The position numbers and the translations under genes were made by a program. Positions 759-33,658 of a stretch of 33,995 nt of DNA are shown here, one piece after another. The stretch lies in the NCBI GenBank assembly GCA_031362565.1, contig JANLSU010000021.1, positions 1 to 33,995 on the forward strand, written 5' to 3'. The stretch's first letter is position 1. Each line of letters opens with the position of its first letter. A model generated the notes under the pieces. That model was not told the origin of the DNA, made no database searches, and was given only the letters and a program-made list of their open reading frames with translations. This DNA comes from a bacterium. Lineage in GTDB: Bacteria > Krumholzibacteriota > Krumholzibacteriia > G020349025.

Positions 759-1343
759 ATGAACTCGCGTGCCATTACAGCATGGGTCCTGGCCTTGGGG
801 GTCGCGGCCGGAACCGCGCAGGCTTCGTCTATTGGAGTGTTCACGGCCGATAATGGAACCGACTGCGATGCGGACGTCGTGCCATTCGCGCCATTCTTCA
901 CGTACATTGGCGCGGTGTTGGGCGGCGACGCGGCCGCCAGCGGCATTTCCGGCGCCGAGTTTCGCGTCGATGGCTACGATGCGGCGTGGTTCAATACCAG
1001 CACGCCGAATGCGGCGTCGAATCTGGCGCTGGCAAACCCGATCACGGGCGGCGGGAACATCGCATTTCCGACCTGCCAGACCGGGACCGGTGGTTTCGTG
1101 TTGCTCTATACCGTTCAGAGCCTCGCGTTTACAACGGTTACGCCGCACACGCTGCACGTCGGCAAACACACGACGCCGAGCAACGTCAACTTCGAATGCC
1201 CGCTCGTGACCATTTGCGATTCCCCGACGTTCACCAAGATCTGCGTGCCGGGTGGCGAGGCGTTCCTGAACACGCCGGATCGCTCCTGCACGGTTGGTGT
1301 CGAGCAGAAGAGTTGGACGGCCATCAAGCGCCTGTACCACTAA
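759..1343 (+). CDS. Secreted Cys-rich beta-rich protein with C-terminal 'SWxxIKxLY' motif (paralogue 1)
   Basis: GGAGGAG RBS at 748-754; signal peptide ending AQA-S; 6 Cys in the mature part; ends CTVGVEQKSWTAIKRLYH; clearly paralogous to 6129-6719. Confidence 0.9.
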   Translation: MNSRAITAWVLALGVAAGTAQASSIGVFTADNGTDCDADVVPFAPFFTYIGAVLGGDAAASGISGAEFRVDGYDAAWFNTSTPNAASNLALANPITGGGNIAFPTCQTGTGGFVLLYTVQSLAFTTVTPHTLHVGKHTTPSNVNFECPLVTICDSPTFTKICVPGGEAFLNTPDRSCTVGVEQKSWTAIKRLYH

Positions 1344-1347
1344 GCCG

Positions 1348-1968
1348 TCAGGGCTTGGCCGCTTGCGGTACCGCGGTGGCCGGCGCCGGTGCCGGACGCA
1401 GGCCTCCGAAATCGACCTTGGGCGTTTGCTTGGCTTCGGTGGAAACCGGATAGAACGGCTCGGCCTTGAACCCCAGCATGTTGGAAAAAATGTTGGTGGG
1501 GAAACGCCGGATCAAAGCGTTGAAGTCGCCGACCTTCTCGTTGTAACGCGTGCGTGCGACCGAGAGGCGATTCTCCGTCCCCGACAGTTCGTCCTGCAGG
1601 CGTGCGAAGTTCTCGCTCGAACGCAACTGCGGATAGTTCTCGATCACCACGAGCAAGCGTCCAAGCGCCGAGTCCATGGACTGGCCGGCGGCGATCTTGT
1701 CTTGTGGGGTGCGTGCCCCGGCCATTTGCGCCCGGGCGTCCGCAATCCGGCCGAAGACCTCTTGTTCCTGCGCCGCGAACCCCTTCACGGTCTCGACGAG
1801 ATTCGGGATGAGGTCGCTACGTCGCTGGAGCTGGTTGTCGACTTCGGCGAAGGCGGTGTGCACTTCGGTCTGCTTGTTCACCAGGCCGTTGTAGCTGCCC
1901 ATGAACCGCCCCACGATGATGAGGAGCAGGACGACAACCACCAACAGAACCATGACACTGCGTTTCAT
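1348..1968 (-). CDS. lemA: LemA family protein
   Basis: N-terminal TM anchor; motifs YNGLV, QLQRRSDLIPNLVETVKG, ENYPQLRSSENF, LQDELSGTENR, RYN, FPTN; GAAGGAG RBS. Confidence 0.96.
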   Translation of the reverse strand: MKRSVMVLLVVVVLLLIIVGRFMGSYNGLVNKQTEVHTAFAEVDNQLQRRSDLIPNLVETVKGFAAQEQEVFGRIADARAQMAGARTPQDKIAAGQSMDSALGRLLVVIENYPQLRSSENFARLQDELSGTENRLSVARTRYNEKVGDFNALIRRFPTNIFSNMLGFKAEPFYPVSTEAKQTPKVDFGGLRPAPAPATAVPQAAKP

Positions 1969-2040
1969 CGCATCTCCTTCGTCGTAACCCAAGGGCTGGC
2001 TCGGTGCCAGCGGCGGTGCTTGGGCACCGCCAGGAACTGA

Positions 2041-2949
2041 TTACCAGCTGCCGGACGCCCCGCCGCCTCCGGAGGCACCGCCTCCAAAGCCACCGAATCC
2101 GCCACCGCCAAATCCGCCCCCGCCGCCGCCCCCAAAGCCGCCGCCCCCGAGGCCGCCACCGTACCACGCCCCGCCCCCGCCGCCCCAGGGCCCGCCCCTG
2201 CCGTGGCCGCCGCGCGAGCGCGCCATCGCCAGACCCAAGAACATCACCACGAAAAACAGCGCCATCGGGTTGATCCCGGTGCTCCGGGTCCGGCGCGGTC
2301 GCGCCACCCTTCCCGTCGGCACGGGCGGCGGCACGTGCCGTTCTTCGGCGATGAAACGCGCCGCTTCGGTCAGGCCCGCAAGGATTCCGCCGGCCATGTC
2401 GCCGGCTTTGAATTGCGGCGTGATTTGGCCGCGAATGATGCCGCCCAAGCGTCCATCGGGGAGGGTGCCTTCCAATCCATAGCCGGTTTCGAAGTGCAGG
2501 GCCCGGTCTTGCAAGGCGATGCAGAGCAGCAGTCCTGCATCGTTCTTGGCGCCGCCGATGCCCCACTTCTGAAACAGTTGGACCGAGTATTCCTCGATCG
2601 TCTGCGGGGCGACGGTCGGCACGATCACGACCGCGAACTGCACCTGCAACGCGCGTTCGACTTCGCCGAGGTAGGCTTCGATGCCGGCCGTCTCACTCGG
2701 GCCGAGAGCGCCGGCGGTGTCGGTCACATAGCCGGCCGGTTTGCCCAAATCGGCCGGACTGGCTGCGACTGCGGCGTCGAAATCTGGCGCCGGTGACAGC
2801 GCGACCGTTGCCGGCAGCGCGCTCGCGGCGCGCGCCACAGCCACGGGTGCCGCCATCGCGATCGGTGCGTGCAGGAGGAAAACGGCCCCTATGGCGGCCA
2901 CCGCGAACCGGCGGCGCCATCGGCCGAGGTCAATCGGCGGGAATTTCAT
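2041..2949 (-). CDS. TPM-domain (YgcG-like) membrane protein with Gly-rich tail
   Basis: GYVTDTAGAL, WGIG...NDAGLLL, ETGYGLEGTLPD motifs; TM helix; terminal GGFGGFGGGASGGGGASGSW; typical partner of lemA. Start approximate. Confidence 0.93.
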   Translation of the reverse strand: MKFPPIDLGRWRRRFAVAAIGAVFLLHAPIAMAAPVAVARAASALPATVALSPAPDFDAAVAASPADLGKPAGYVTDTAGALGPSETAGIEAYLGEVERALQVQFAVVIVPTVAPQTIEEYSVQLFQKWGIGGAKNDAGLLLCIALQDRALHFETGYGLEGTLPDGRLGGIIRGQITPQFKAGDMAGGILAGLTEAARFIAEERHVPPPVPTGRVARPRRTRSTGINPMALFFVVMFLGLAMARSRGGHGRGGPWGGGGGAWYGGGLGGGGFGGGGGGGFGGGGFGGFGGGASGGGGASGSW

Positions 2950-3700
2950 CGACCTTGCCAATGAGAGATTCGAGCGCCGCCACGTGGGCGGCGAAACGCT
3001 CCCTGGCGACCGCATCGGACGGCGGCTTGGCCGCGCGCCGCGCCGTGACCGGTACGGTGAGCCCTGCAGCATCGACGCCGAACGATTCGGCGACCGCCCC
3101 CAAAAGTTCGTCGGGGTCCTCGGGTGCTTGGGTGACATCGTGCAGCGCCAGCAGGCCGCGCGCGGTAGCGGCGATGCCGCCGGCGGCGCGCGCCATCAGT
3201 TCGTGCGCCACGCCCGGCCGGCCGCCGGCGCGCAGGAACCCTTGGCGCAGCCCCACGAGTTTGGAACGCAGCTCCCATTCGCACTGATGCCGCAGATTGC
3301 GCCCCTCGAGCTCCAGCTCGGCCACGAGATCGGTGCCGTAGACGAGCCCGCGCCGCGTCAGCAAGTCCAGGAATTCGACGGGAAAGACGTCGGTGGAGTC
3401 GCGCAACTGATCGGCCGTCATGACCAGCGGCGTGACGCGCTGTTTATCGCGGCGCGCTTGCGCGGCGAGGGCGACCGCCAGCGCCTCCAAGCGGGCGTGC
3501 GACAGATCGTTCATGACGATCAACAGATTGATGTCGCTCTTGGTGCGGTCGAAGCGCGGACCGAGCGCACTGCCATGGACGTAGATGGTGCCGCATGCAT
3601 CGCCCGCCGCTTCACGCACCACCGCCACCCAGGGCGTAATGGCGTCTTGGATCGCGACGGGCACGGTGTGCGGTGCCGTAGCACGCAGGGGCTTCTTCAT
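2930..3700 (-). CDS. Nucleotidyltransferase-like protein (pol-beta fold) associated with lemA/TPM
   Basis: YVHGSA...SDINLLIV motif, DVFPVEFLDL and NLRHQCEWELRSKL; overlaps the TPM start. Confidence 0.85.
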   Translation of the reverse strand: MKKPLRATAPHTVPVAIQDAITPWVAVVREAAGDACGTIYVHGSALGPRFDRTKSDINLLIVMNDLSHARLEALAVALAAQARRDKQRVTPLVMTADQLRDSTDVFPVEFLDLLTRRGLVYGTDLVAELELEGRNLRHQCEWELRSKLVGLRQGFLRAGGRPGVAHELMARAAGGIAATARGLLALHDVTQAPEDPDELLGAVAESFGVDAAGLTVPVTARRAAKPPSDAVARERFAAHVAALESLIGKVDEIPAD

Positions 3701-3724
3701 GCCGGCATGGTAATCGGCGCGCCG

Positions 3725-4252: not shown

Positions 4253-4279
4253 GCGCCCTTCACGAAATGCCGGCCGCCG

Positions 4280-6128: not shown

Positions 6129-6719
6129 ATGAAAGTCCGCGTTATCGCTTCGCTCGTCATGGCTTCGTGTCTCGCCGTTGGTTCCGCCAACGCCTCGTCG
6201 ATCGGTATTTTCTTCGCGCCGGACGCGAGTAGCTGCAGTGGAACGGCTGCACCGTTCACGCCGTTCTTCACCTACATCGTCGCCGTCCTCGGTGGCGACG
6301 CTGCAGCGACGGGCATCACCGGCGCCGAATTCCGTGCCGATGGCTACGACTGCGCTTGGTTCAACACCCCCACGCCGGCGCCGGCCTCGAACCTGTCGCT
6401 CGGCAATCCGCTTTGCCCGCAACCGACGGGCAACGGCGTCAACATCGCGTTCCCGTCGTGCCAGAGCGGTTCTTCGGTGCTGCTCTTCACGATCCAGAGC
6501 CTCGCGCTTGGAGCGGTGACGCCGCGGACCTTGTCGATCAAGCAGCACACGGTCCCGAGCAATCCGAATTTCCAGTGCGCATTGTTCACCCTGTGCGATC
6601 AGTCGTTCTCGAAGATCTGCGTGAGCGGCGGCGAGGCTTTCCTGAATCAGTCGGGCGCGCCCTGCACCGTTGGCGTCGAGCAGAAGTCGTGGTCCGGCGT
6701 CAAGTCGCTGTACAACTAA
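6129..6719 (+). CDS. Secreted Cys-rich beta-rich protein with C-terminal 'SWxxVKxLY' motif (paralogue 2)
   Basis: GGGGAGG RBS; signal peptide ending ANA-S; 8 Cys in the mature part; ends CTVGVEQKSWSGVKSLYN; followed by a terminator. Confidence 0.92.
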   Translation: MKVRVIASLVMASCLAVGSANASSIGIFFAPDASSCSGTAAPFTPFFTYIVAVLGGDAAATGITGAEFRADGYDCAWFNTPTPAPASNLSLGNPLCPQPTGNGVNIAFPSCQSGSSVLLFTIQSLALGAVTPRTLSIKQHTVPSNPNFQCALFTLCDQSFSKICVSGGEAFLNQSGAPCTVGVEQKSWSGVKSLYN

Positions 6720-6808: not shown

Positions 6809-8614
6809 TCAGGGCGTGCCGGCGCGTGACCCGCCGCCGGCGGCGAGCGCGGTTTGCATCCGCGTTAGCATGGGGTCCGCTGCGAGGAAGCCGGTGACCG
6901 TCAGGTCTTGCAAGATCGTGCCGTCGGGCCGCACGAAGGCGACCCACGGCAGGCCGCGAATCCCGTACTTCTGCATGAGAGCCTGCGTTTCAGGCGTGTT
7001 CTGCTTGGTCGCGTCGATGCGCACGGGCACGAAGCGGCGGGCGAGTTCGATGACCCGCGGATCGCTGAACGTGAAGCGCTCGAGTTCTTTGCAGGCGACG
7101 CACCAATCGGCACTGAAATCGATGAGCATCGGCTTCGATTCGGCGCGGGCGCGCTCGAGTCCTTGGCTTTCAGATGCGAGCCAGGGCGGATTGACGATCG
7201 CCCGGCCCTGCGATCCGGGGAGCCACGGCACGATCAGTCCGTAAAGGCCGGCAATGACGGCGGCGCGCCCGAGCGCTTTGCGCCAGCGTTTCGCGGTCGG
7301 CTCGCTCTCGATGATTTCGCGCCCGGCGCCGAGCCCCAGTCCCAAGACGACGAGCGCCGCGCCCACCGGCAGCAAGGCGCGTGTGTGCGGCAAGTGCGGG
7401 TGCAAGTAGTAGAGCGCGAGCGCCAGGAACACGAGCCCGAAGGCGATCTTGACGCGGATCATCCAGGCGCCGGATTTCGGCAAGCTCGTCAGCACGCCGG
7501 TAAATGTGCCGAGCACGATGAACAACAAGCCGAGCCCGAGCGCGAAGGTGAAAAAGAGCCCGAATCCGAGTGCCGCGCTGCCGGTCGCGGCCACATAGGC
7601 CAACATGGCGACGAGCACCGGGCCGACGCAGGGCGAGGCCACGACACCGGCAATGAGGCCGAACAAGAAAGCGCCCGGATAACCGTTGCCCTGAACGCTG
7701 TTCAATCGCCCCGCGAGCGCCGGCGGCACCTGCATCTCGAACGCGCCGAACAGGCTCATGGCCATGACGATGAAGATCCCCGCCACCCCCATCACGACGA
7801 ACTTGTTCTGCAACACGCTGCCAAAGAGCGAACCCGTGAGCGCCGCACTCGTGCCGAGCGCTGAGTACGTGACGGCGATGCCGAGCACATACAAGAGCGA
7901 CAGCGTGAAGCCCTTCGAACGCTTGCCGGCGCTCCGCGCGCCGATGATGCCGATGGTGATTGGAATCATCGGATACACGCACGGGGTGAAACTGGTCAGG
8001 ATGCCGGCCGTGAAGGCGAGCAGGAAGAGCCAGAAGAGGCCGCGGCTGGCGGCTTCGCGCAGCCGTTTTTCGGGGGTCGTCGGGCCGGCCGGGGCCGCGG
8101 GCGTGGCCGCCACCGCCGTCCCTCGCACCAAGTCGCCGCCTTGGCTGCCAAGGACGGTCAACCGGGCCACCAGCGTATCGCTCTGCGGGAAGTAGCAAAA
8201 CTTGCTCGAGCAGCCCTGGGTGCCGAACACGAGCCGGACGCTCGCCGACTGTTGAACGCGCAGCCGCGCCGCGAACTCGGTGTCGTGCTTGAAGACCTGC
8301 ACTTCCGCCTCGAGGAACGGGTCCATCTTGGTTTCCGGATGCGGCCGGTCGGTGCCGGCGAGTTCGACTCCGGGCACCGCCAAGACCTCGAGCGTCGTCC
8401 GCTCGTCGTAGATGTAGTGCCCCGCCGGCACATGCACCTGCACGCGGAGCGTCGCAATCGTGCCGGGGGAGAGAGTGTCGGCCGGGACTGCAAGCGTCGC
8501 GGTAAAGGGGGAGCGCACCGGGGCCGCGCTGCCGGCGTCGGCGAAGGGCGAATCGGCGGCCTTCGCGCCCGCCGCCAACAGAATGAGCAAGGCAACGATC
8601 CAGAGGCGGCGCAT
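6809..8614 (-). CDS. dsbD: Thiol:disulfide interchange protein DsbD
   Basis: Signal peptide; N-domain QGCSSKFCY; TM domain FTPCVYP and ASPCVGP, LPKSGAWM; C-terminal thioredoxin DFSADWCVACK. Confidence 0.95.
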   Translation of the reverse strand: MRRLWIVALLILLAAGAKAADSPFADAGSAAPVRSPFTATLAVPADTLSPGTIATLRVQVHVPAGHYIYDERTTLEVLAVPGVELAGTDRPHPETKMDPFLEAEVQVFKHDTEFAARLRVQQSASVRLVFGTQGCSSKFCYFPQSDTLVARLTVLGSQGGDLVRGTAVAATPAAPAGPTTPEKRLREAASRGLFWLFLLAFTAGILTSFTPCVYPMIPITIGIIGARSAGKRSKGFTLSLLYVLGIAVTYSALGTSAALTGSLFGSVLQNKFVVMGVAGIFIVMAMSLFGAFEMQVPPALAGRLNSVQGNGYPGAFLFGLIAGVVASPCVGPVLVAMLAYVAATGSAALGFGLFFTFALGLGLLFIVLGTFTGVLTSLPKSGAWMIRVKIAFGLVFLALALYYLHPHLPHTRALLPVGAALVVLGLGLGAGREIIESEPTAKRWRKALGRAAVIAGLYGLIVPWLPGSQGRAIVNPPWLASESQGLERARAESKPMLIDFSADWCVACKELERFTFSDPRVIELARRFVPVRIDATKQNTPETQALMQKYGIRGLPWVAFVRPDGTILQDLTVTGFLAADPMLTRMQTALAAGGGSRAGTP

Positions 8615-8865: not shown

Positions 8866-9630
8866 ATGGTGGTCGACACGCGCGTCGAAGTCCTCGAGTC
8901 CGAAGTGCGTGGCGCTGGGCGCTTGCCCCGGCACCTCGCCATTATCATGGACGGCAACGGCCGCTGGGCCAAACAGCGGCACTTGCCGCGCATCGCCGGA
9001 CACACGTCGAGCCGGGAGACCGTCCGCCGCGTCGTCCGCCTCTGCGCCCGCCTCGGCATTCCGACGCTGACGCTCTACACGTTCTCACAGGAAAACTGGA
9101 AGCGTCCGCAGCTCGAAGTGCGGGCGCTCATGAAACTGCTCGAAGAAGTCTTGCAGAGCGAATACCTCGAGCTTGCCGAGAACAACATTCGGCTGACCGC
9201 CATGGGTTCGGTGGACGCTCTCCCCGCGAGCACCCGCAAACACTTGCTGGAAACCATGCAGCGCTTGTCGGTGAACACGGGCATGATCCTCAACCTGGCG
9301 GTCTCCTACGGCGGACGGCGCGAGATCGCCGACGCCGCGCGGCGCGCCGCGGCCGATATTGTTGCGGGCCGCCTCCGTCCGGAGGATCTCGACGAGACGC
9401 GGTTCGCGACCTACCTCTACCGGCCCGAACTGCCAGAACCCGATTTCCTCATTCGCACCAGCGGCGAAAAACGCCTCAGCAACTTCTTGCTGTGGCAGCT
9501 TGCGTACACGGAGCTGTACTTCACCGACGTCCTCTGGCCCGATTTCTCGGAAGCGGACTTGCTCCTCGCGCTGCGGGATTTCCAGAGCCGCGAGCGGCGT
9601 TTTGGCGGCACCACACAGATCGAGCGGTGA
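8866..9630 (+). CDS. uppS: Undecaprenyl diphosphate synthase (cis-isoprenyl transferase)
   Basis: HLAIIMDGNGRWA, FSQENWKRP, YGGR, IRTSGEKRLSNFLLWQ and LWPDF motifs. Confidence 0.97.
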   Translation: MVVDTRVEVLESEVRGAGRLPRHLAIIMDGNGRWAKQRHLPRIAGHTSSRETVRRVVRLCARLGIPTLTLYTFSQENWKRPQLEVRALMKLLEEVLQSEYLELAENNIRLTAMGSVDALPASTRKHLLETMQRLSVNTGMILNLAVSYGGRREIADAARRAAADIVAGRLRPEDLDETRFATYLYRPELPEPDFLIRTSGEKRLSNFLLWQLAYTELYFTDVLWPDFSEADLLLALRDFQSRERRFGGTTQIER

Positions 9631-10514
9631 ACGTGAAGACACAGGTCCGCCTGGCGCCGGTCGCGGATGCGGCCCCGCCACGCAGCCGTTTCCGCGGCCT
9701 CGGATCCCGAGTCGCAGCGGCGCTGGTGTTTCTGCCGTGTTTCTTGATCATCGCCTGGCGCGGCGATGTGTACTTCGTGCTGTTGGTCAATTTCATCTCG
9801 GTCGCTGGGACGTTCGAATTCATCCGCATGCTCGAGGCCAAAGGACTGAAGCCGCAGCGCGTCGCGGCGCTCGTCGCGGCGTTCGTGTTGCCGTGGCTCG
9901 CCTTCTGGCGCGGCGGCATCTATATGGATTGCGGGCTGGCGATCCTCTTGGTGAGCGTGTTGACAACGGAACTCGTGCGGTCCACGGGGCAAGCCCTTGC
10001 CCAGGTTTCGGGAGCGGTGTTCGGCGTCATGTACGTGGCCTGGTTGTCGAGCCACTTGGTGGCGCTCCGCGAGCTGCCGTTGCAGGTCGGCCAGCCCTAC
10101 GGGCTTGGCTTCCGGGCGGTCGGACTCGTGTTCATCACCACGTGGATGGCCGATACCGGCGCCTATCTGGTCGGCTCGCTCGTCGGCCGTCACAAGCTCG
10201 CGCCGCGAATTTCGCCCGGGAAATCTGTCGAGGGTGCACTGGGTGGCTTGGCCGTCGCCATTGCTTCGGGCGCCGTTTATGCGCACCTTTGCATGCGCCA
10301 GGAAATGTCGATGGGCGCCGGCGCCTGGATCGGGGCGCTGGCAGCGGTAGCGGGGCTGGCAGGTGATTTGGCGGAGTCGCTCATGAAGCGCGATGCGGCG
10401 GTGAAGGACGCATCGGGAGCGATTCCCGGCCATGGCGGCGCGCTCGACCGCTTCGACAGTGTGCTCTTCACGGCGCCGTTGATATACTACGCCTTGCGTT
10501 TCGTCGTGCTCTGA
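9627..10514 (+). CDS. cdsA: Phosphatidate cytidylyltransferase
   Basis: Multi-TM; DTGAY, ISPGKSVEG and GDLAESLMKRDAAVKD...IPGHGGALDRFD signature; GTGA overlap with the uppS stop. Confidence 0.96.
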   Translation: MNVKTQVRLAPVADAAPPRSRFRGLGSRVAAALVFLPCFLIIAWRGDVYFVLLVNFISVAGTFEFIRMLEAKGLKPQRVAALVAAFVLPWLAFWRGGIYMDCGLAILLVSVLTTELVRSTGQALAQVSGAVFGVMYVAWLSSHLVALRELPLQVGQPYGLGFRAVGLVFITTWMADTGAYLVGSLVGRHKLAPRISPGKSVEGALGGLAVAIASGAVYAHLCMRQEMSMGAGAWIGALAAVAGLAGDLAESLMKRDAAVKDASGAIPGHGGALDRFDSVLFTAPLIYYALRFVVL

Positions 10515-10555
10515 AACGGTCTCCCGAACGCGTCCCGGTTCCTCATGGGTGGTTG

Positions 10556-11740
10556 ATGAAACGAATCGTCGTCTTGGGTTCGACCGGCTCGATCGGACGC
10601 CAAGCACTCGCGATTGCCGCCGACAATCCCGCCGCGCTCGCGGTGGTCGGCCTGGCTGCGGGCCGCAACGTGGAGTTGTTGCGGACGCAGCTCGAAGCGT
10701 TTCCGGCCGCGGTCTTTGCGGTTGCCGATCCGGCAGCGGGGGCGCGCCTTCTCGACGCGGTTCCCGCCTGGCGCGGCCGCTGTGTTGGGTTCGGGCCGGA
10801 GGCGGTCTGTGCGGTCGCACGTCTGGCGGCGGATGTGGTGTTGAACGGGTTGACGGGCTATGCCGGTTTGCGTCCGTCGCTCGCGGCGCTCGAGGCCGGA
10901 ACGCATTTGGCGCTCGCCAACAAGGAAAGCATGGTGGTCGCCGCCCACCTGATGCGCGCCGCCGCCCGGCGGAGCGGTGTGGAGATTCGTCCCGTGGACA
11001 GCGAGCACAGTGCGCTCGGGCAGTGCTTGCGCGCCGGCTCCACATCGGAAGTGCGGCGCCTGTTGCTGACTGCTTCCGGCGGCCCGTTTCGAACCTGGTC
11101 CCGCGACGCGCTCGCGCAAGCCACACTCGCCGATGCGCTGCGGCATCCGACGTGGTCCATGGGCGCCAAGATCACCATCGACTCCGCGACGCTCATGAAC
11201 AAGGGACTCGAAATCATCGAGGCGCATGGACTCTTCGGCGTCGAGTATGACGCCATCGACGTCGTCGTCCATCCGCAGTCCATCGTGCACTCGTTGGTCG
11301 AATTCGTGGATGGCTCGGTGGTGGCGCAACTCGGGACGCCGGACATGCGTCTTCCCATCTGGATCGCTTTGCACGCCCCGGAGCGCGTGGCCGCCGACTT
11401 TGGGCGTTTGGATCTGGCCCGGGCCGGCACCCTGACCTTCGAGCCCGTGGATCAGGAGCGTTTCCCGTGCGTCGGGCTGGCAGTGGCGGCGGGGCGGCGG
11501 GGCGGCACGTTTCCAGCCATTTTGAACGCCGCCAACGAAGTCGCGGTGGCGGCCTTCCTGGACGGCCGGATCCGCTACCTCGAGATCGCCGCCGCCGTCG
11601 GCGCCGTTCTGGAAGACGCGGCCGGCTGGGCGCCGGGCGGGGAACCGGACCTCGAAACCATCGCGGCCGCCGATACGCGGGCGCGGCATGAAACCCGCAC
11701 CAAGACACACGGGTCGGGCACGCCGGCGAGCATTGTCTAG
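10556..11740 (+). CDS. dxr: 1-deoxy-D-xylulose-5-phosphate reductoisomerase
   Basis: GSTGSIG, LANKES, PVDSEH, TASGGPFR, HPTWSMGAKITIDSATLMNKGLE and NAANE motifs. Confidence 0.97.
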   Translation: MKRIVVLGSTGSIGRQALAIAADNPAALAVVGLAAGRNVELLRTQLEAFPAAVFAVADPAAGARLLDAVPAWRGRCVGFGPEAVCAVARLAADVVLNGLTGYAGLRPSLAALEAGTHLALANKESMVVAAHLMRAAARRSGVEIRPVDSEHSALGQCLRAGSTSEVRRLLLTASGGPFRTWSRDALAQATLADALRHPTWSMGAKITIDSATLMNKGLEIIEAHGLFGVEYDAIDVVVHPQSIVHSLVEFVDGSVVAQLGTPDMRLPIWIALHAPERVAADFGRLDLARAGTLTFEPVDQERFPCVGLAVAAGRRGGTFPAILNAANEVAVAAFLDGRIRYLEIAAAVGAVLEDAAGWAPGGEPDLETIAAADTRARHETRTKTHGSGTPASIV

Positions 11741-11785
11741 ACCGTCGGCCCCTTTTTCGACCGGCGCGCTCGGGGCGCGAGGAGA

Positions 11786-13216
11786 ATGCACATGCTGACA
11801 ACGCTGCTCGCGGCCGTGATCGTCCTGGGGCCGGTCATCGTCATCCACGAACTGGGCCACTTCCTGGTCGCCAAGTTGTCCGGGATCTACGTCAAGACGT
11901 TCTCGGTGGGATTCGGTCCCAAGTTGCTGCGGCTGACGATCGGCGAAACGCAGTACGCGCTGTCGGCGATTCCGCTCGGCGGCTATGTGCGGATGGCCGG
12001 CGAGTCCGGCGCCGAACGGACGGCGTCAGCGCCCGACGCCCCGGGCGCCCACCTGGTCGATGTCGCCCCGGCGGAGAAGGCGAGTGGCGAAGCGGCGTTG
12101 TACCCGCGCGACGAAGTGAGTGACGACGACATTCCGCCGCATCGCTGGTTTCGCAACAAACCGATTCCGACCCGTCTCGCGGTCGTGACCGCCGGCCCCA
12201 TCGCCAATTTGGTGCTCGCTCTCGTGGTCATGACGAGCGTGCTGTGGCACGAAGGCATGGCGATTGCGCCGACCACCGTCATCGCCGGCGTGACCGACAC
12301 GAGCGAAGAATTCAAAGCCGGTTTGCGCAACGACGACAAGGTCATCGCGGTCGCCGGCGCGCCCGTCACGAACTCGCTGGAAGTCGAGACCGCACTCGCG
12401 GCGCGCGAGGCGGGGCCGTTGGAGCTGCGCATCGAGCGCGCCGGACGTGACACGACCCTCGTGCTCGCCGGGGTGCGGCGCGAAAAGGCGGCGATTGTTT
12501 TTCCGCGCTGGAGCTATCGTTTCGACTCGCGTATCGGACACGTGAAGCAAGAGGGTCCGGCGGCGCGGGCTGGAATTCTGCCGGGCGACCGCATCGTCGA
12601 AATCGACGGCCAACCGATTCGCTACTACGACGAGATTTCCGATCACATCAACCCGAACATCGGCAAAGCCGTAAGCGTCACCTGGGAACGCAACGGTGAG
12701 CGCCGCACGGCCAGCCTGACGCCCGAAGCCGAGGAAGTGCAGGCCAGCAAGAATTCGAACGACATCAAGAAGATCGGCCGCATTCAGATCGAACTTTTCA
12801 CCCTCACCGCGCCGGTGAGCCTGGGGCGGGCGTTTTCCGAAAGCGTCCAGCGGACCTGGGCGTTCTCGAGCGACACGCTGCACTTCTTGGGACAACTCGT
12901 GACCGGCCACGGTTCGCGTGACGCGGTCGGCGGCCCGATTCGCATCGGACAAGTCGCGGGTTCGGCACTGCGGTGGGGCTATTCGACGCTGTTCACCTTC
13001 ATGGCTTTCTTCAGCGTCAATCTCTTCCTGCTCAACTTGCTGCCGATTCCAGTGTTGGACGGCGGGCACGTGGTGTTCTTGCTCGTCGAGGCGGTGCGCG
13101 GCGAAGCCCTTTCACTGCGGGTGCAGGATCTCCTGCTCAAGGTCGGTGTGTCGGCGCTCATCGCCATCATGGGGTACGTGGTGGTTCTGGATTTTTGGCG
13201 GGTCCTGCATGGTTGA
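11786..13216 (+). CDS. rseP: RIP metalloprotease RseP (site-2 protease, two PDZ domains)
   Basis: HELGH, FSVGFG, PLGGYVRM, AGPIAN and NLLPIPVLDGGH motifs; canonical position after dxr. Confidence 0.96.
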   Translation: MHMLTTLLAAVIVLGPVIVIHELGHFLVAKLSGIYVKTFSVGFGPKLLRLTIGETQYALSAIPLGGYVRMAGESGAERTASAPDAPGAHLVDVAPAEKASGEAALYPRDEVSDDDIPPHRWFRNKPIPTRLAVVTAGPIANLVLALVVMTSVLWHEGMAIAPTTVIAGVTDTSEEFKAGLRNDDKVIAVAGAPVTNSLEVETALAAREAGPLELRIERAGRDTTLVLAGVRREKAAIVFPRWSYRFDSRIGHVKQEGPAARAGILPGDRIVEIDGQPIRYYDEISDHINPNIGKAVSVTWERNGERRTASLTPEAEEVQASKNSNDIKKIGRIQIELFTLTAPVSLGRAFSESVQRTWAFSSDTLHFLGQLVTGHGSRDAVGGPIRIGQVAGSALRWGYSTLFTFMAFFSVNLFLLNLLPIPVLDGGHVVFLLVEAVRGEALSLRVQDLLLKVGVSALIAIMGYVVVLDFWRVLHG

Positions 13217-13568
13217 GAGCCCCATCCAGGTGGCGCAGCGCCACCCGCGGTGAGGGTTCCTTCTCGAGTTCATGCAACCGTTTGGCGATCGTGTCGAAGA
13301 CCGTTTCCCAGCGTTCCGGATCGGCATCGAGACCGGCGAGCGCGGCGCGCACCGCGGTCGAATCGTAGCTCGCCGCCAGACGATCGAGCGCCGGACCGAC
13401 CGAATCGGGTTCGTCGGCGCGCCAGGCCTCGAGGACCGAGATGCGGACGTACGCGTCCACGAGCGCCCGCTCTTGCGGCGTGAGCGATGGGCCGGACTCC
13501 GATCCTGGACCACATCCGGCAACCGCGATCCAGACGCTGAGCACGAGGGTCAACCGACGCACGAACAA
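13167..13568 (-). CDS. Hypothetical small helical lipoprotein
   Basis: GGAGG at 13579-13583 before TTG/GTG starts; RR plus hydrophobic stretch and lipobox-like VAG-C; helical mature region; fills the gap between rseP and the Omp85 gene. Confidence 0.7.
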   Translation of the reverse strand: MFVRRLTLVLSVWIAVAGCGPGSESGPSLTPQERALVDAYVRISVLEAWRADEPDSVGPALDRLAASYDSTAVRAALAGLDADPERWETVFDTIAKRLHELEKEPSPRVALRHLDGALNHAGPAKNPEPPRTP

Positions 13569-13689
13569 GGGTTTGACACCTCCGGGACCGGCGAGCTTCG
13601 AGGTTGCGGCACCTCCAGCCGATACCCTAGTGTCTAGCGCGGGTGCGGGCAAGCGGCGAGCGTCCGGCACGAGCGGACCGGGGGCACAG

Positions 13690-15663: not shown

Positions 15664-15702
15664 GTGGCGTATTCTGCCTTGGGGCGGCGAGGGAGTTCGA
15701 AC

Positions 15703-19693: not shown

Positions 19694-21997
19694 GTGGAAG
19701 ACTCACTCGCGCACTTGAATCCAGAACAACACCGCGCCGTCACGGCGGGCGACGGCCCGTGGCTCATTCTGGCCGGCGCCGGCAGCGGCAAGACGCGCGT
19801 TCTCACGTCGCGCATCGCCCACTTGATTCAAAACCGCGGCGTGGCACCGTATCGCATTCTGGCCTTCACGTTCACCAACAAAGCGGCACGCGAGATGCGG
19901 AGCCGGGTCGAAGGCATGCTGGCCGGCACCTCCGGGGATTGCTGGCTCGGCACTTTCCATTCGATCGGCGTGCGCATTCTGCGGCGCGAGGCGGAGCGGC
20001 TCGGCTGGCAGCGCAATTTCGCCATCTACGACACCGAAGACACCGAATCGGTCTACAAGAAGCTGCTCGAGGGACGCACGGTGGCGCGCCATGTGAGCGC
20101 CTCGGAGGCTCGCAATGTCGTCAGCGCTTGGAAGAACGGCCGCGTGTCGCCGGACGCGGCGCACCGCGCCGCCGGCGACGAGCGCGAGCGGTTGCTGGCG
20201 GAGCTGTTCGTGGACTACGAGAAGGCGCTCAGGCGCAACAATGCCTTCGACTTCGACGACCTCATCGGCAAACCGGTACAGCTCTTCGAATCGGATCCGG
20301 AAGTCCTGAAATCGTATGCCACCCGGTTCCAGCACGTCCTCGTCGACGAGTTTCAGGACACCAACGACATCCAGCTGACCTATATCGACCTCCTGTCGAG
20401 CCACTACGGGAACCTGTTCGTGGTCGGCGACGACGACCAGTCGATCTACGGATGGCGCGGCGCCAAGATCGAGAACATCCTGGAGTTCGACCGCCGTTTG
20501 CCGCAGACGCAGACGGTGCGGTTGGAACAGAACTACCGATCGACGGCGCCGATCCTGAATGCCGCCAACCATGTGATCGCTCATAACCGTGGCCGCCGCG
20601 GCAAAACGTTGTGGACGGCACGCGAGGGCGGTGAGGCGCTGCATCTGAGCTTTCACACCGACGAGGAAGAGGAAGGGCTGCGGGTGGCGCAGGTCGTCCA
20701 GGAATGGACGGCCGCCGGGCGGTCGCGCAACGAGGTCGCGGTGCTCTATCGCACGAACGCCCAGTCGCGAGCCCTGGAAGATGCCCTGCGCCGCGCCAAC
20801 CTGCCCTACCAGATCATCGGCGGAACACGCTTCTACGAGCGGCGCGAAGTGCGCGATGTCGTGGCCTATCTGAAGGCGGTGCACAATCCCGCCGATGCCG
20901 TTTCACTGCAGCGCATCCTGAACGTGCCGCGCCGCGGCATCGGCGACACGACCATCGATCGCCTGAACGAGGCCGCGGCGGCCGCCGGTTCGACGCTTGG
21001 GGCGGTGATCGAGCATCCCGGAGCCGCCGGACTGAATGCCGGCGCGCTGCGCAAGATCGCCGAGTTCGGCAAACTGTTCGCGGAATTGCAGGCGCTCGCG
21101 GCGACCGGCAGCTGCGTCGAGGTCGTGCAGGCCGTCGTGGATCGCACCCGCTACTTCGAATACCTGAAGGAGAGCGATCCGGCCACCTTCCAAGCGCGGC
21201 GCGAGAACGTCGAAGAACTCGTTTCGGCGGCCCAGGCCTTCACGGAAGAGTCGACCGACGACCCGAGCCTGCGCGCCTTCTTGGAAGAGATCGCCCTCGT
21301 CTCCGACATCGACCGCCTGGACGAGAAGGCCGAGATGGTGACGTTGATGACACTGCACATGGCCAAGGGTCTCGAGTTTCCGGTCGTGGTGCTGACCGGG
21401 CTCGAGGAACGCCTGCTGCCGCACGCTTCGAATATGGAAGATCTGGCGGGACTCGAGGAGGAGCGCCGGCTCTTCTACGTCGGCATGACGCGCGCTGAAG
21501 AACGCCTGTACCTGATGTCGGCCAGCAACCGGCGCCGCTACGGCAATTACGAGCCCATGATGCAATCGCGTTTCCTCGCCGACCTGCCGGAAGATGGGGT
21601 GATCGTCGAAACGCCGCGCCAAGGGCCGCCGCGCCGCGCCGCCTGGTCGTCGCGCCAAGACTCGTGGCGTTCGTATCGGGAAGGCGATCCCGATACGTTC
21701 TGGGGCGCTCAGGGCCTGGATCCGAATACCTTCGAATCGCACGGCCTCAAAGCCCGTAACGCCGCCGCCCGCGCGGCAGTGCCGCCGGCCCGTCCGCTCG
21801 GCTGGGCCGAAGGGGAGGAGTCGCAGGAATCCACCACGCTCGAGGTTGGGATGCGCGTGCGGCACGAAAAGTTTGGCGAGGGCCAAGTTTTGCGGCTCGA
21901 AGGGCACGGCGACATGATGAAAGTGACCGTGATGTTCGGACGCAACGAACAAAAGAAATTCGTGGCGCGCTATGCGCGGCTCGTGCCGGTGTCGTGA
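19694..21997 (+). CDS. uvrD: UvrD/PcrA ATP-dependent DNA helicase
   Basis: AGAGSGKT, TFTNKAA, VDEFQDTN, VGDDDQSIYGWRGA, LEQNYRS, LYRTNAQS, TLHMAKGLEF and EERRLFYVGMTRA; C-terminal Tudor-like VGMRVRHEKFGEG. Confidence 0.97.
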   Translation: MEDSLAHLNPEQHRAVTAGDGPWLILAGAGSGKTRVLTSRIAHLIQNRGVAPYRILAFTFTNKAAREMRSRVEGMLAGTSGDCWLGTFHSIGVRILRREAERLGWQRNFAIYDTEDTESVYKKLLEGRTVARHVSASEARNVVSAWKNGRVSPDAAHRAAGDERERLLAELFVDYEKALRRNNAFDFDDLIGKPVQLFESDPEVLKSYATRFQHVLVDEFQDTNDIQLTYIDLLSSHYGNLFVVGDDDQSIYGWRGAKIENILEFDRRLPQTQTVRLEQNYRSTAPILNAANHVIAHNRGRRGKTLWTAREGGEALHLSFHTDEEEEGLRVAQVVQEWTAAGRSRNEVAVLYRTNAQSRALEDALRRANLPYQIIGGTRFYERREVRDVVAYLKAVHNPADAVSLQRILNVPRRGIGDTTIDRLNEAAAAAGSTLGAVIEHPGAAGLNAGALRKIAEFGKLFAELQALAATGSCVEVVQAVVDRTRYFEYLKESDPATFQARRENVEELVSAAQAFTEESTDDPSLRAFLEEIALVSDIDRLDEKAEMVTLMTLHMAKGLEFPVVVLTGLEERLLPHASNMEDLAGLEEERRLFYVGMTRAEERLYLMSASNRRRYGNYEPMMQSRFLADLPEDGVIVETPRQGPPRRAAWSSRQDSWRSYREGDPDTFWGAQGLDPNTFESHGLKARNAAARAAVPPARPLGWAEGEESQESTTLEVGMRVRHEKFGEGQVLRLEGHGDMMKVTVMFGRNEQKKFVARYARLVPVS

Positions 21998-23169
21998 GCC
22001 GGCGCCGTCAACGGGCCGGCGGGGCCGTGGCGCACCTTCGCCCGACCTGTCGTGTTGCGGGCGGCGCGCCGGCGTTCGGCAGTCGCGAGCAGTCCCACCG
22101 CGACCAAGATGAATCCCAATGACGCCCAGTCTTCGCGCGCCGGGGCCTTGCCCTCGAACACGATCCAGAAGATGAGCGTCGCCGTCGTCCCGGCGATGAG
22201 CGAGGTCAGGCGGTTCACGAGTCCCGAGAACGTCGCCGTGCGGCCCTTGAAAATGAACAAGAACACCGAGAAAAAGGCGACGATACCGTAGGACGTGCCC
22301 GCCAGTGCCGCCTTCGGCCAGTCGGCGTGCGGGGTGCGAATCGCACCTTGAATCTGTCCGATGGCGTTCATCAGGCCGGTCGCATCCGGAGCCACGCGCC
22401 AGGCCAGAATGACCACGGTGACCAGGACCAACGTCGTGAACGCCGCCATCTGCTCGACGGCGAAGAATCCCTTGTCGTTCATGCGGATGCCTGGCCCGCG
22501 GGTGTTCTTGTAATAGTTCATGATGTAGATGCGCAGCCCATAGGCCACCACATAACTGCCGAGGATGCCCATGGCGGCCGTCGAGTGCAGGAAATCGAAC
22601 GCCCCATTGGTCGACGGCGCGAAGAAAAGTGTCGTTGCAACGGCGAGTAACGCGAAAAACACTGCCCAGTTCTCGAGCGGATGCACCCGCTTGTGGAGCA
22701 GCCCTTGGCGGATTTGAATCGCATCGACGATGCGGCTGACGATGATCACCGCGCCGCGCATGATCACCATGGCCAGCATGACCGTGATCGGCAGGCTGAA
22801 CATGAGCGTCGTGGCCGGAATGATGATCGCCGTCAGCACCCCGGATGGCAAAATGTAGAGCCACTCGGACGGGAATCGGAACCGGCCCCACTGGATCGGT
22901 CGGTTCGATTCGAGGCGATACCAGCGCAGTCCAAGGCAGACAATCAGCGCGATGACCGAGCCGCCAATCGTGCTGTAGGCGAGCCACTGCATCGGGCTCA
23001 AGCCGGGGAAGCCCTGCTCGGCTTCGGCCTGGAAGTACTTGACCGCCGTGCCGTACACGACGTACGAAGCGTAGTAGCCTAGGCAGTACTGCAGCAGTCG
23101 CCCGGTGCTGCCCTCCGGCGTCCTCCATCTCACGTCAGGCCTCCGGTCGCCGCGAGTCCTCACGCGCAT
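21970..23169 (-). CDS. Hypothetical ~10-TM membrane protein, DMT/EamA-like topology
   Basis: About ten hydrophobic segments in two halves; start uncertain (23169 ATG or 23133 GTG). Confidence 0.8.
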   Translation of the reverse strand: MRVRTRGDRRPDVRWRTPEGSTGRLLQYCLGYYASYVVYGTAVKYFQAEAEQGFPGLSPMQWLAYSTIGGSVIALIVCLGLRWYRLESNRPIQWGRFRFPSEWLYILPSGVLTAIIIPATTLMFSLPITVMLAMVIMRGAVIIVSRIVDAIQIRQGLLHKRVHPLENWAVFFALLAVATTLFFAPSTNGAFDFLHSTAAMGILGSYVVAYGLRIYIMNYYKNTRGPGIRMNDKGFFAVEQMAAFTTLVLVTVVILAWRVAPDATGLMNAIGQIQGAIRTPHADWPKAALAGTSYGIVAFFSVFLFIFKGRTATFSGLVNRLTSLIAGTTATLIFWIVFEGKAPAREDWASLGFILVAVGLLATAERRRAARNTTGRAKVRHGPAGPLTAPAHDTGTSRA

Positions 23170-29495: not shown

Positions 29496-30136
29496 TCGCG
29501 GCGGCGGGGCGCGGTCGCGAGCGCGACAAACCGTTCGTGGGGCCGCAGATCGGTTCCGAGTTCGGGATGGAACGTCGTCGCCATGACGCGTCCCTCTTCG
29601 ACCCAGACCGGATCGCCGTCCAGTCGCGCCAACACGCGCACCTGGGGTCCAACCCGCACGATGCGCGGCGCACGAATCAGCACGGTTTCGATGTCGTCGG
29701 CGGGAATGGTCGCGCGCCATCCACGGGTCCGGCCCGCCGCCGGCGGGGCATCCGACCCAAGTGTGGCGTGTCGAACGGTACTCTGCGTTTGGCGGCCGTA
29801 CGCATTGCGCTCGACCGTGAGATCCAAGAGCCCGAGTCCGACGCCGGCTGGATTCCGCACTTCGCGCGCCAGCAGGATGGCGCCCGCACACGTGCCATAG
29901 AGGGCGCCGCCGCCGCCGGCGAAAGCCCGCAACGCCGCTTCGAGTCCATCCTGCCGGAGGAAATGCCACATCGTCGTGCTCTCGCCCCCGGGCAGCACGA
30001 GGCCGTGGAGGCCCGTGAGGTCGGCGGCGCGCCGCACATCACGCCACGCGAGCCCCAAGCGCTCGAGGACCCGTCCATGGGCCGCGTAATCGCCCTGCAC
30101 GCACAAGATGCCGAGGCGGGCCGAACGCACGCTCAC
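29447..30136 (-). CDS. pdxT: PLP synthase glutaminase subunit
   Basis: GIL.VQG, PGGESTT, GTCAG, RNAYGRQ, IRAP and FHPE motifs; GTGA overlap with the pdxS stop. Confidence 0.95.
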
Positions 30137-31119
30137 CAACCGCGGGTTTGCAGCAGGTCCTTCTCGTCCAGGCGGCGGATGTCGAGTCCGGGCATCGCTT
30201 CGCCCAGGGCTTCACTGGCGCGCAGGACTTCCTTCGGCTCGCGGAAATGCAGCACCGCATGGACGATGGCGCGAGCCCGCTTTTCGGGATCGGTGGATTT
30301 GAAAACCCCCGAGCCGACGAAGACGGTCTCGGCACCGAGTTGCATGAGAAGCGCCGCGTCCGCCGGCGTTGCGACGCCGCCGGCGGCGAAGTTCGGCACC
30401 GGCAGGCGCGGGAATTCCGCATCACGATTGTGATCGCGGATCCAGCGCACGAGTTCGACCGGGGCGCCGAGTTCTTTGGCTTCGTGCACGAGTTCGGCAT
30501 CCGAGAGCCGGGTCACGCGCCGCATTTGGGTCGAGATGGTGCGCAGGTGGCGCACCGCTTCGACGATATTGCCGGAGCCTGCTTCACCCTTGGTGCGAAT
30601 CAGTGCGGCGCCTTCGGCGATGCGCCGCAGTGCTTCGCCCAAGTCGCGCGCGCCGCAGACGAACGGCACCGTGAAGGCCCACTTGTCGACGTGGTGTTCG
30701 TCGTCGGCGGGAGTCAGGACCTCGCTCTCGTCGATGAAGTCGACTTCCATCGCTTCCAGAACCTGCGCTTCCGCGAAATGGCCGATGCGGCACTTGGCCA
30801 TGACTGGAATGCTGACGGCTTTCTGAATCTCGCGCACCTTCGAGGGTGAAGCCATGCGCGCCACGCCGCCGTCGCGCCGGATGTCGGACGGCACCCGTTC
30901 GAGCGCCATGACGGCAACCGCGCCGGCGCGTTCGGCGATGATCGCTTGCTTGACGTCGGTGACGTCCATGATGACGCCGCCCTTCAACATTTCGGCCAGT
31001 CCGGTTTTGACGCGCAGCGTCAGTGCCGCCGGCCGCGGCGCGGCGGCGCTGCCATTCGAACCAGTGCGAACCACGGCGCGCTTCGCGGCGGTGGCCGTCG
31101 GACGAGATTTCGGCTTCAT
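30133..31119 (-). CDS. pdxS: PLP synthase lyase subunit
   Basis: [51 protein letters not shown] and FVGSG motifs. Confidence 0.97.
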
Positions 31120-31164
31120 GTCGGATTCCTTTCGTGATCGCGCCTCGCTGCGGATCGTCTTGGT

Positions 31165-32676: not shown

Positions 32677-32690
32677 GCCAGCCTCCTCGG

Positions 32691-32809
32691 TTTGGACCAG
32701 GCCAATACGGGCAGTGATGGCCGTCCACGCTGCGAAGAGAGCGTATTGGATTAAATCTCCCGGGCACAAGAGCCAAGCGGGTTCCGATATGAACCAGCCA
32801 ATTTGGACC
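32691..32809. promoter_or_regulatory. Putative MocR/PdxR operator region
   Basis: Perfect inverted repeat CCAATACG (32702-32709) / CGTATTGG (32742-32749); direct repeats TTTGGACC (32691, 32802) and GCCAAT (32701, 32797). Confidence 0.5.
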
Positions 32810-32992
32810 CTTCGGCGGGAGAGGGCATTGGCCACCGAGGGTGTCGCATCGGTAGACACGCCACCGTCTGCAGCGTGGGCAATGGGGTTGCGGCACCCGG
32901 CCGAGGTGCCGGGCCAGGGCCGCACCGCGGCCATGGTGCGCGAATTGCGGCTCGGAAGGCCGTGCCCCGCGCCTCCCGACGTGAGGTTCATC

Positions 32993-33658
32993 GTGTTGCA
33001 AGTGCGTTCGGTCTTGGCAGCCGGCGTTCTGCTCAGCAGTTCGCTTGGGGTCGCGTTCGTCGCGCCGCCGTGTGGGGCGCAAATCGTCGTCAATGAAATC
33101 CTTGGCGATCCCGGTGCCGACTGGGATGGCAACGGCACCTTGAGTTCGCGAGACGACGAATGGGTCGAGATCTACAACGCGAGTGGCGTCCCGCAAGTGC
33201 TCGACAACTATCGCCTCTCCGATGGCGGCACGATCCGGCTCTTGCGCTACGGCTTCAGCGGCACTCTGGCGCCCGGGGCGCGCAAGTTGGTGTACGGGAG
33301 CACGAGCGTCGCCTGGGAAACCGCCAACGGGATTTCAGCCGTCGGCTTGTCGCTCAACAACGCCGGCGACACGGTGCGTCTGTGGCAAATCGCCGCCACC
33401 GACACGGTCCTCGTCGACAGCTACACGTACGCCTCATTCGAGGTCTTGAACGACCGCTCGGTCGGACGTTTCCCCGACGGTGGCAGCGAATGGCGGCTGT
33501 TCGACCATCGCGCTCCCTACACCGGCACGACGCCGCCGCTCGGTACGGGGTGCGAGCCGACCCCGGGTTCTCCGAACCAGTGTCCGACCGCCGTCGAACC
33601 CGCACCGTGGAGCCGCATCAAGCAGATCTACCGCGGACCCGCCGCGGATTCGCGCTGA
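32993..33658 (+). CDS. Secreted lamin-tail-domain (LTD) protein with C-terminal 'PWSRIKQIY' motif
   Basis: Signal peptide; LTD motifs IVVNEI, DEWVEIYN, LAPG, LNNAGDTVRL, SVGRFPDG and PTPG..N; DWDGNG Ca-loop; tail CPTAVEPAPWSRIKQIYR. Start uncertain (32933-33002). Confidence 0.9.
   Translation: MLQVRSVLAAGVLLSSSLGVAFVAPPCGAQIVVNEILGDPGADWDGNGTLSSRDDEWVEIYNASGVPQVLDNYRLSDGGTIRLLRYGFSGTLAPGARKLVYGSTSVAWETANGISAVGLSLNNAGDTVRLWQIAATDTVLVDSYTYASFEVLNDRSVGRFPDGGSEWRLFDHRAPYTGTTPPLGTGCEPTPGSPNQCPTAVEPAPWSRIKQIYRGPAADSR

Follow-up and report, generated by a model that had tools for sequence, protein, structure and literature searches.

Signals at the C-termini of exported proteins define how bacteria dress their surfaces, and the discoveries of LPXTG, of PEP-CTERM and of the C-terminal domain (CTD) of the secretion system of type IX (T9SS) each led to a new enzyme or secretion machine. 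The stretch analyzed here, hereafter the window, is a 33,995-nucleotide contig (C27) of a 5.41-Mb, 133-contig Krumholzibacteriota genome with 65% GC. It raises the question of what is meant by a short tail, here called the LYR tail, that closes three of its predicted exported proteins and that an initial annotation had put forward as a protein sorting or secretion signal. Genome-wide analysis found that the tail is a portable, modular tag on ~115-130 signal-peptide proteins of at least 60 unrelated families, ~3% of the proteome, and that it interchanges with both PEP-CTERM and the T9SS CTD on homologous passenger domains.

Three window proteins of two folds end in the same tail

P0001 (759..1343, plus strand) is an exported protein of 194 aa, with a signal peptide at residues 1-22, a predicted cohesin-like beta-sandwich body at residues 23-176, and then the tail; its translation ends in CTVGVEQKSWTAIKRLYH, within which the tail proper, TVGVEQKSWTAIKRLYH, spans residues 178-194 (1290..1340, plus strand). 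Its paralogue P0002 (6129..6719, plus strand; 196 aa, 60% identity) ends in CTVGVEQKSWSGVKSLYN, with the tail TVGVEQKSWSGVKSLYN at residues 180-196 (6666..6716, plus strand), and adjoins a DsbD gene (6812-8614) on the opposite strand. P0003 (32993..33658, plus strand) is an exported Lamin Tail Domain (LTD) protein of 221 aa that ends in CPTAVEPAPWSRIKQIYRGPAADSR, where the tail PTAVEPAPWSRIKQIYR (residues 198-214, 33584..33634, plus strand) is followed by a seven-residue extension, GPAADSR (33635-33655). The three tail translations were identical to those first reported, and at the N-terminus of each protein stand a basic residue, a run of hydrophobic residues and a site resembling A-x-A, in agreement with the signal peptides that the initial annotation had assigned to them.

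The claim that the tail sits on two unrelated folds also held. P0003 matched PF00932 over residues 29-147 with 46.9 bits (cut-off 34.3), P0001 and P0002 had no match in Pfam or NCBIfam and have a predicted cohesin-like fold, and the two types fell into separate blastp clusters unrelated by sequence. The other 25 genes called in the window all lack the tail at their ends, as had been stated.

The tail is strictly C-terminal and conserved as a peptide

All six-frame open reading frames (ORFs) of at least 60 aa in the genome (n=50,604) were scanned with the expression W-x-x-[IVLM]-K-x-x-[YF]. This gave 133 matches, 114 of them within 12 residues of the stop codon, compared to 1.7 expected from the internal match rate, with 4 at 13-30 residues from the stop and 15 further in. 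The 19 non-terminal matches look like chance, lying in cytoplasmic or membrane contexts, and no T9SS CTD followed any internal match; two of the 114 C-terminal matches are false positives that resemble TonB. With a profile derived from 113 tails, 124 ORFs scored 12 bits or more, every one of them (124/124) at the C-terminus. By both measures the tail is strictly C-terminal, which the initial annotation had supposed from three examples.

The consensus of 115 tails is [C]-[TP]-V-[AG]-V-[EQ]-x-x-[ST]-W-[SG]-x-[VI]-K-x-L-[YF]-R-stop. One residue past the Y/F position is where 71 of the 115 stop, and 80 have Arg there, while 44 have 2-13 residues past Y/F; across the data, C-terminal extensions of 1-25 residues are tolerated and the Lys is near-invariant. 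Weaker C-terminal profile matches add variants in which V is replaced by T or A, K by R (five cases) and W by M (once). The K-to-R change, also found in 2 of 27 aligned P0001 homologues, weakens the idea that the Lys is a site of covalent attachment. A Cys stands at position -9 or -10 in 44 of the 115 tails, and the tail follows the last Cys of many domains.

Synonymous codons are varied at the conserved tail residues, with Ser encoded by AGC and TCN, Leu by CTN and TTG, and Arg by CGN and AGG. This rules out a DNA-level repeat as the origin of the tail, and conservation or selection therefore acts at the level of the peptide.

Carriers are small exported proteins of many families

Our in-house gene caller, which is crude, gave 4177 genes and called 103 of the 115 tail ORFs. 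Under a loose signal-peptide heuristic 97 of the 115 tail ORFs scored positive, compared to 1654 of 4018 other genes, and under a strict heuristic 80 of 114 tail genes did so, compared to 732 of 3927 remaining genes (odds ratio 10.3, p 9e-32), so the enrichment on signal-peptide proteins anticipated by the initial annotation is present genome-wide. The strict heuristic recognized 35 of 80 unmistakable T9SS-CTD proteins used as a positive control, showing its limited sensitivity. Tail proteins are richer in Cys (2.3% versus 1.0%) and small, with a median of 232-244 aa against 920 aa for CTD cargo. A link to lipoproteins was rejected, as a lipobox-like start occurs in 5 of 114 carriers and is not enriched.

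When the 115 carriers were compared by blastp after removal of their last 25 residues, they formed 66 clusters, of which 50 were singletons and the largest, with 25 members, was the P0001/P0002 family. Representatives of 59 of the 66 clusters were scanned; those not included were four stubs of under 50 aa, the pair of TonB-like false matches and the LTD protein, which had already been scanned. Twenty of the 59 matched Pfam at E ≤0.001 and 39 had no match. The matched domains include fn3, beta-helix (two), NHL (two), PD40, phosphoesterase, Temptin_C, DUF4082, Kre9_KNH, trypsin-like, CHRD, alpha/beta hydrolase, ice-binding-like, Kelch, a thioester domain and a few DUFs, and NCBIfam adds choice-of-anchor N (118.4 bits, cut-off 40) and DNRLRE (47.7 bits, cut-off 34). 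The tail is thus not confined to the families of the window, a point that the initial annotation had left to be checked.

The same scans, covering P0001-P0003 and the 59 representatives, found no Pfam or NCBIfam model that aligns to the tail, in line with the earlier statement that it fits neither the class of signals with a transmembrane helix nor that of the T9SS CTDs. Literature on Krumholzibacteriota secretion, on T9SS and Fibrobacterota-Chlorobiota-Bacteroidota (FCB) sorting signals, on choice-of-anchor proteins and on type IX secretion in Eisenbacteria gave no description of the tail in the articles themselves, and six tail hexapeptides used as literature search strings returned only unrelated matches. 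The tail is uncatalogued in the protein-family databases and literature searched. Being unannotated, it leaves more than 100 proteins per genome in little-known soil and sediment phyla to be called soluble hypotheticals, and a tail profile would improve exoproteome annotation in these phyla and could provide a very small export or display tag for engineering.

The tail interchanges with PEP-CTERM and T9SS domains

The choice-of-anchor N match (NF038141) is a tail protein at G000:C37:95-628, where G000 denotes this genome, and its homologues show directly what can stand in the position of the tail. Among 118 homologues, 33 end in the tail (..PFSHDGQVPVQxxTW[ST]xVKALY..), three more have F for W and one tail is degenerate, while 67 show a [V]PEP motif and then a hydrophobic helix and a cluster of Arg, with the junction at the same ..PFSHD[GA] boundary as for the tail. 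Seventeen of the 118 fell into the class 'other' of our expression-based sorting, a class that includes the three F-variants, the degenerate tail and one false positive of the expression (P0143), the remainder being mostly PEP-CTERM variants. The closest 37 homologues are ~217 aa long. The exchange also occurs within the phylum, where the ends were read at 5 of 15 loci: two members of the same family as this genome (G001 and G003) and a further relative (G070) have a choice-of-anchor N copy with PEP-CTERM, and this genome has its copy with the tail.

Choice-of-anchor N genes also lie directly beside an exosortase gene in at least nine relatives (for example G070:C3:184383-186034, G052:C5:57804-59472 and G047:C9:43457-45134), which suggests a dedicated pair of exosortase and substrate.

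A second exchange involves the T9SS. A profile of the P0001 body matched 35 ORFs in this genome. Small tail proteins account for 25 of them, another 8 are large (502-2589 aa) and have the P0001-like domain near the N-terminus and a T9SS CTD at the end, and 2 are of other kinds. Of 36 metagenomic homologues of P0001, all 27 that were aligned retain it, including one in which an extra domain of ~70 aa is inserted ahead of the tail and the tail still comes last. In the LTD family the tail lies near the C-terminus in 109 of the 120 best P0003 homologues, where it is typically followed by a Pro/Arg-rich extension of 5-25 residues.

The tail is predicted to be a short amphipathic helix outside the fold

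AlphaFold2 models were made for P0001 with 27 homologues and for P0003 with 33 homologues. The P0001 body was modeled confidently, with a predicted local distance difference test (pLDDT) score above 90 for residues 23-175, and from residue 171 the ten-residue blocks fell to 75, 55 and 54, with a predicted helix at 186-193 (WTAIKRLY). P0003 was modeled with a confident LTD body, and its blocks from residue 201 scored 70, 68 and 48, with a predicted helix at 206-212 starting from W206. In these models the tail appears as a low-confidence extension that is not confidently packed on either domain, so that a tail integral to the fold, a case the initial annotation had left to be checked, is not borne out, and the amphipathic helix proposed earlier was predicted to start at the Trp in both proteins.

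The hydrophobic moment is 0.41 as a helix versus 0.24 as a strand, and the helix positions W, +3, +4, +6, +7 and +8 are conserved while +2 and +5 are variable. In the models, the [ST] that precedes the Trp fits a helix N-cap. The predicted arrangement would therefore be a flexible linker, then a two-turn helix capped by [ST] and starting at the Trp, and the conservation pattern is what one would expect of a helix mostly buried in a partner, as a peptide lies in the groove of a protein.

The likeness of the P0001 body to cohesins is moderate. The top 40 Foldseek matches were cohesins (E from 6e-6, template modeling (TM) score 0.5-0.68, ~10% identity), and Pfam gave no Cohesin (PF00963) match on P0001 or P0002. 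Look-alikes of the body in the ESM Atlas are Krumholzibacteriota hypotheticals, and the nearest named cluster there has PF00963 on 16% of its members (score 0.88), a lead only.

The tail occurs throughout the phylum and in several others

To follow the tail across genomes we used a degenerate DNA pattern for W-x-x-[VIM]-K-x-L-[YF]-R-stop, which matched this genome 38 times and gave no match for the reversed control. It matched 183 of 208 genomes of the phylum, with 2 matches in all for controls. Pattern-poor genomes of the phylum carry dialect tails that the pattern misses, their P0001 homologues ending in ..TWGAIKEMYKD or ..SWSAVKALF-stop. These dialects (G050, G052, G047, G015, G007 and G042; loci L206-L211) comprise ..TWGAIKEMY[KR][DN] in one genus and a stop right after Y/F in another family, and since tails that stop there lack the terminal Arg, that residue is dispensable. 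No truly tail-free genome was identified within the phylum, so profiling within it has little power.

A stricter pattern run over 185,579 species genomes matched at least 124 loci. Among the 80 matches listed, metagenome-assembled genomes (MAGs) are labelled Eisenbacteria/Eiseniibacteriota, Krumholzibacteriia, Gemmatimonadota, 'uncultured Fibrobacteraceae' or unclassified bacterium, with a few odd labels, and because [ST]-W-[GS] stands at the pattern-free positions in all 80 listed, these are true tails. In one small phylum, found by way of such a MAG, 9 of 9 genomes have 12-40 pattern matches. These scans agree with the earlier statement that similar tails occur in FCB-related candidate phyla, since tails were found in MAGs of several of them.

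MAGs labelled Gemmatimonas sp. (L104/G212), Verrucomicrobiia (L065/G208) and Methylomirabilota (L108/G209) have many tails together with PorU. The sample assembled as the phylum of G212 holds the window's own relatives (the matches of G230 are those of G001), and at least the public label of G212 looks wrong.

The tail resembles known sorting signals without belonging to them

Portable C-terminal tags on mixed families of secreted proteins are familiar from LPXTG/sortase, GlyGly-CTERM/rhombosortase and MYXO-CTERM, all of which include a membrane-spanning helix that the tail lacks. Short terminal amphipathic helices rich in W, L, K and R target PBP5, MinD and FtsA to membranes; they resemble the tail in size, position and amphipathicity, but are poorly conserved and found on single protein families, whereas the tail is on at least 60 families of exported proteins. 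An outer-membrane beta-signal, the terminal aromatic residue of a beta-barrel, does not describe it either, as 80 of 115 tails have the Arg at the end, 44 of 115 are extended, and the bodies are soluble domains.

PEP-CTERM with its exosortase (PF07589, TIGR02595, PF09721) is likewise a short C-terminal tag, with the identical boundary in choice-of-anchor N and a Val/Pro/Glu-rich start. The tail differs in having neither a transmembrane helix nor an Arg cluster: none of the 115 tails is followed by a hydrophobic stretch, and none of the 59 representatives has a PEP-CTERM hidden Markov model match, while homologues that bear a true PEP-CTERM can be told apart clearly. Nor does it co-occur with exosortase as PEP-CTERM would, since 9 of 20 pattern-rich genomes have an exosortase (0 of 10 in one family, f7), as do 13 of 20 pattern-poor genomes. 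Exosortase is thus not required and was rejected as the reader. This genome has an exosortase and only 2 PEP-CTERM matches, compared to ~130 tails.

The type A CTD of the T9SS shares more with the tail, as both are C-terminal, are carried by Sec-exported proteins from a range of unrelated families, occur in genomes that have a complete T9SS, alternate on one passenger domain, and have a basic residue near an end that tolerates extension. The differences are of size and form: 17 residues against ~50-100, no beta-sandwich or sheet in the tail, and carriers of median ~240 aa against 920 aa. Not all CTDs are large, as 48 of 80 Prevotella intermedia CTDs were described in PMC11969387 as 'short', typically a single three-stranded sheet, and as still cleaved, glycosylated and modeled on PorV like long ones. 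For Porphyromonas gingivalis, PMC11285876 reports that an extreme C-terminal T9SS motif, in which a Lys is conserved, is important, that lengthening the C-terminus does no harm, and that the signal of HBP35 maps to the last 22 residues. That motif is like the tail in its near-terminal conserved Lys and its tolerance of extension, and the two have no motifs in common.

The T9SS is the favored candidate reader

Because the tail is C-terminal, modular, carried by exported proteins and interchangeable with two established sorting signals, it is very probably a sorting or anchoring tag. As its specific reader we favor the T9SS, to which we give somewhat less than an even chance, since no other envelope machine was found in all of the tail-bearing genomes examined and since a passenger domain switches between tail and CTD. 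Tail proteins would then be exported by Sec and fold with disulfides in the periplasm, after which a receptor in the envelope may bind the tail; the likeliest receptor would be part of the T9SS, for example the PorV shuttle or the translocon. Small cargo (the median of 232-244 aa) would be exported or attached via the tail, and large cargo (median 920 aa) via a full CTD. A minimal T9SS signal of this kind would redefine how little information the T9SS needs; if the tail is something else, a sorting machine awaits discovery.

T9SS cargo is abundant across the phylum, with 30 to at least 109 TIGR04183 matches in each of 40 test genomes. PorU was also found in 4 of 4 MAGs from outside the phylum with 9-30 pattern matches, and a 'Thiobacillus' MAG with a single pattern match on a 2.9-kb contig is without PorU. 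In this genome PorV (L185:1279-2262, minus strand, on contig C85) adjoins two tandem PorU genes and a third PorU lies elsewhere.

The three PorU genes are full-length (G000:C85:54727-63600 and G000:C131:37991-41272; loci L185 and L188-L190), and 35 of 39 relatives tested have one. An extra PorU paralogue acting as a dedicated sortase was rejected, since nearly all relatives have a single PorU regardless of tail count.

Several results weigh against the T9SS as reader. It is universal in the phylum, so its co-occurrence with the tail does not discriminate and is weak evidence: PorU was present in all 40 phylum genomes, in a copy number unrelated to tail abundance. The presence of tail and CTD in the same genomes could equally mean two different routes, and the interchange with PEP-CTERM shows a generic anchor slot, not one specific to the T9SS. 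Neither TIGR04183 nor PF18962 matched P0001-P0003 (E up to 1) or the 59 representatives (Pfam 0.001, NCBIfam 0.01), and TIGR04183 matched elsewhere in this genome at least 109 times. CTD motifs B, D (GxY) and E were not found in the tail, whose core is predicted to be a helix, not a beta-strand. No conserved or recurrent machinery gene was found beside the tail genes of this genome or of two arrays elsewhere, and the signal-peptide predictions and gene calls behind the carrier set are home-made heuristics.

Two more direct connections between tail and CTD were tried and rejected. The tail is not the start of a CTD, as no internal motif match precedes one and the CTD entry region is unlike the tail, without W-x-x-V-K. 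A linker common to both classes as a cleavage site was too weak, since the same strict expression finds it in 6 of 80 CTD proteins, of which five are paralogues, compared to 1.2 expected, and in only 33 of 114 tails. The initial annotation had described T[AG]VE-like linkers as frequent ahead of T9SS domains, and of this only a weak trace was seen, not a general feature.

Other readings of the tail

It is possible, and we put it forward tentatively, that the LYR tail represents a third class of bacterial C-terminal sorting, neither a transmembrane tripartite tag nor a folded domain, with an envelope machine of its own. If this were true, it would mean a new secretion or surface-anchoring pathway serving ~3% of the proteome in several phyla of the FCB group (Krumholzibacteriota, Eisenbacteria and relatives). 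That a dedicated machine other than the T9SS reads the tail, such as a peptide-binding receptor of the periplasm or outer membrane, a transferase bearing tetratricopeptide repeats (TPR) that would modify the protein or a sortase-like enzyme cutting the [TV]-[AG]-V-E linker, we regard as somewhat unlikely. The lack of a motif common to tail and T9SS domains speaks for it, as does the coexistence of the tail with more than 100 CTD proteins in one genome, which suggests a separate address, and the conservation of 6 of 9 helix positions across phyla, which fits a specific protein reader. Possible enzymes also lie beside tail arrays in two other genomes, in the form of TPR-fused GT-C (PMT_2) and sulfatase-family transferases and an AglB-like oligosaccharyltransferase. 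No candidate survives, however: 11 of 20 pattern-rich genomes, among them 10 of 10 in f7, lack exosortase, this genome has no sulfatase-family genes, its PMT_2 genes (n=17) are not closer to tail genes than chance would place them (5 lie within 5 kb versus 3.7 expected, P 0.32), and no recurrent neighbor of tail genes was seen. The array neighbors (GT-C, sulfatase-TPR and AglB-like) were rejected as readers for want of any such linkage in this genome, where ~36 of 484 neighbors of tail genes are CTD proteins and the others belong to generic families.

The two arrays have seven tail genes each. One (L212, G214:C1:3003000-3022999) is flanked by the TPR-fused PMT_2 (GT-C) and sulfatase-family transferases, and the other (L213, G215:C6:3000-22999) by the AglB-like oligosaccharyltransferase and a small outer-membrane beta-barrel protein. 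Seventeen PMT_2-type GT-C glycosyltransferase paralogues occur in the one 5.4-Mb genome of the window.

The tail may instead need no reader, which we consider unlikely. Its helix, with W, V/I, L and Y/F on one face and K and R flanking, would then lie at a membrane leaflet's interface or against lipopolysaccharide and thereby hold exported proteins to the envelope. A helix is predicted in two unrelated proteins with a larger moment than a strand would have (0.41 versus 0.24), W, Y, K and R are residues typical of membrane interfaces, in homologues the tail takes the place of a PEP-CTERM anchor of transmembrane type, no reading machinery turned up among the candidates tested, and the C-terminal amphipathic anchors of PBP5, MinD and FtsA offer a parallel. 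Nine residues are nevertheless very short for stable binding as a monomer, and in anchors that work without a reader it is usually amphipathicity alone that is conserved. In the tail, by contrast, specific residues are kept across phyla, as are the [ST] cap and the small residue that follows the Trp. The conserved V-x-V-E linker upstream would also be left unexplained.

A role as a mini-dockerin, in which the tail plugs into cohesin-like modules such as the P0001/P0002 body and builds chains or a surface lattice, an option that the initial annotation had named, is suggested by the fact that the largest tail-bearing family (25 paralogues) is cohesin-like and that the same module heads 8 large T9SS-anchored proteins; we find it very improbable. 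The P0001 family was not detected (E ≤1e-8) in 10 of 10 pattern-rich f7 genomes and is present in pattern-poor ones, so it was rejected as a general receptor, and the fold likeness is moderate (TM ~0.5, 10% identity). Least credible is that the tail has no sorting role and spread among secreted proteins as a folding cap, a protection against proteases or a degradation or quality-control tag, as its place behind the final Cys in many domains (44 of 115 tails have one at -9 or -10) might suggest, since it occupies the exact slot of PEP-CTERM and T9SS signals in homologues, is not confidently packed on the domain in the AlphaFold2 models and is kept on 66 unrelated clusters and in several phyla.

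Remaining genes of the window

The remaining genes of the window are housekeeping genes: LemA, TPM, an amidohydrolase, DsbD, a uppS-cdsA-dxr-rseP-Omp85-TamB row, UvrD, gatCAB, pdxST and a GntR-aminotransferase. Two well-scoring gene calls, of 256 aa (2933-3700, minus strand) and 362 aa (21973-23058, minus strand), have no Pfam family at E 1e-5. The DsbD gene (6812-8614, minus strand) is complete, with DsbD_N, DsbD_TM and thioredoxin domains, and lies 93 bases downstream of the gene for the Cys-rich P0002. The row at 8866-19653 is a conserved envelope-biogenesis cluster that encodes uppS, cdsA, dxr, rseP (an M50 protease with PDZ), an Omp85/POTRA protein and a TamB-like protein of 1316 aa.

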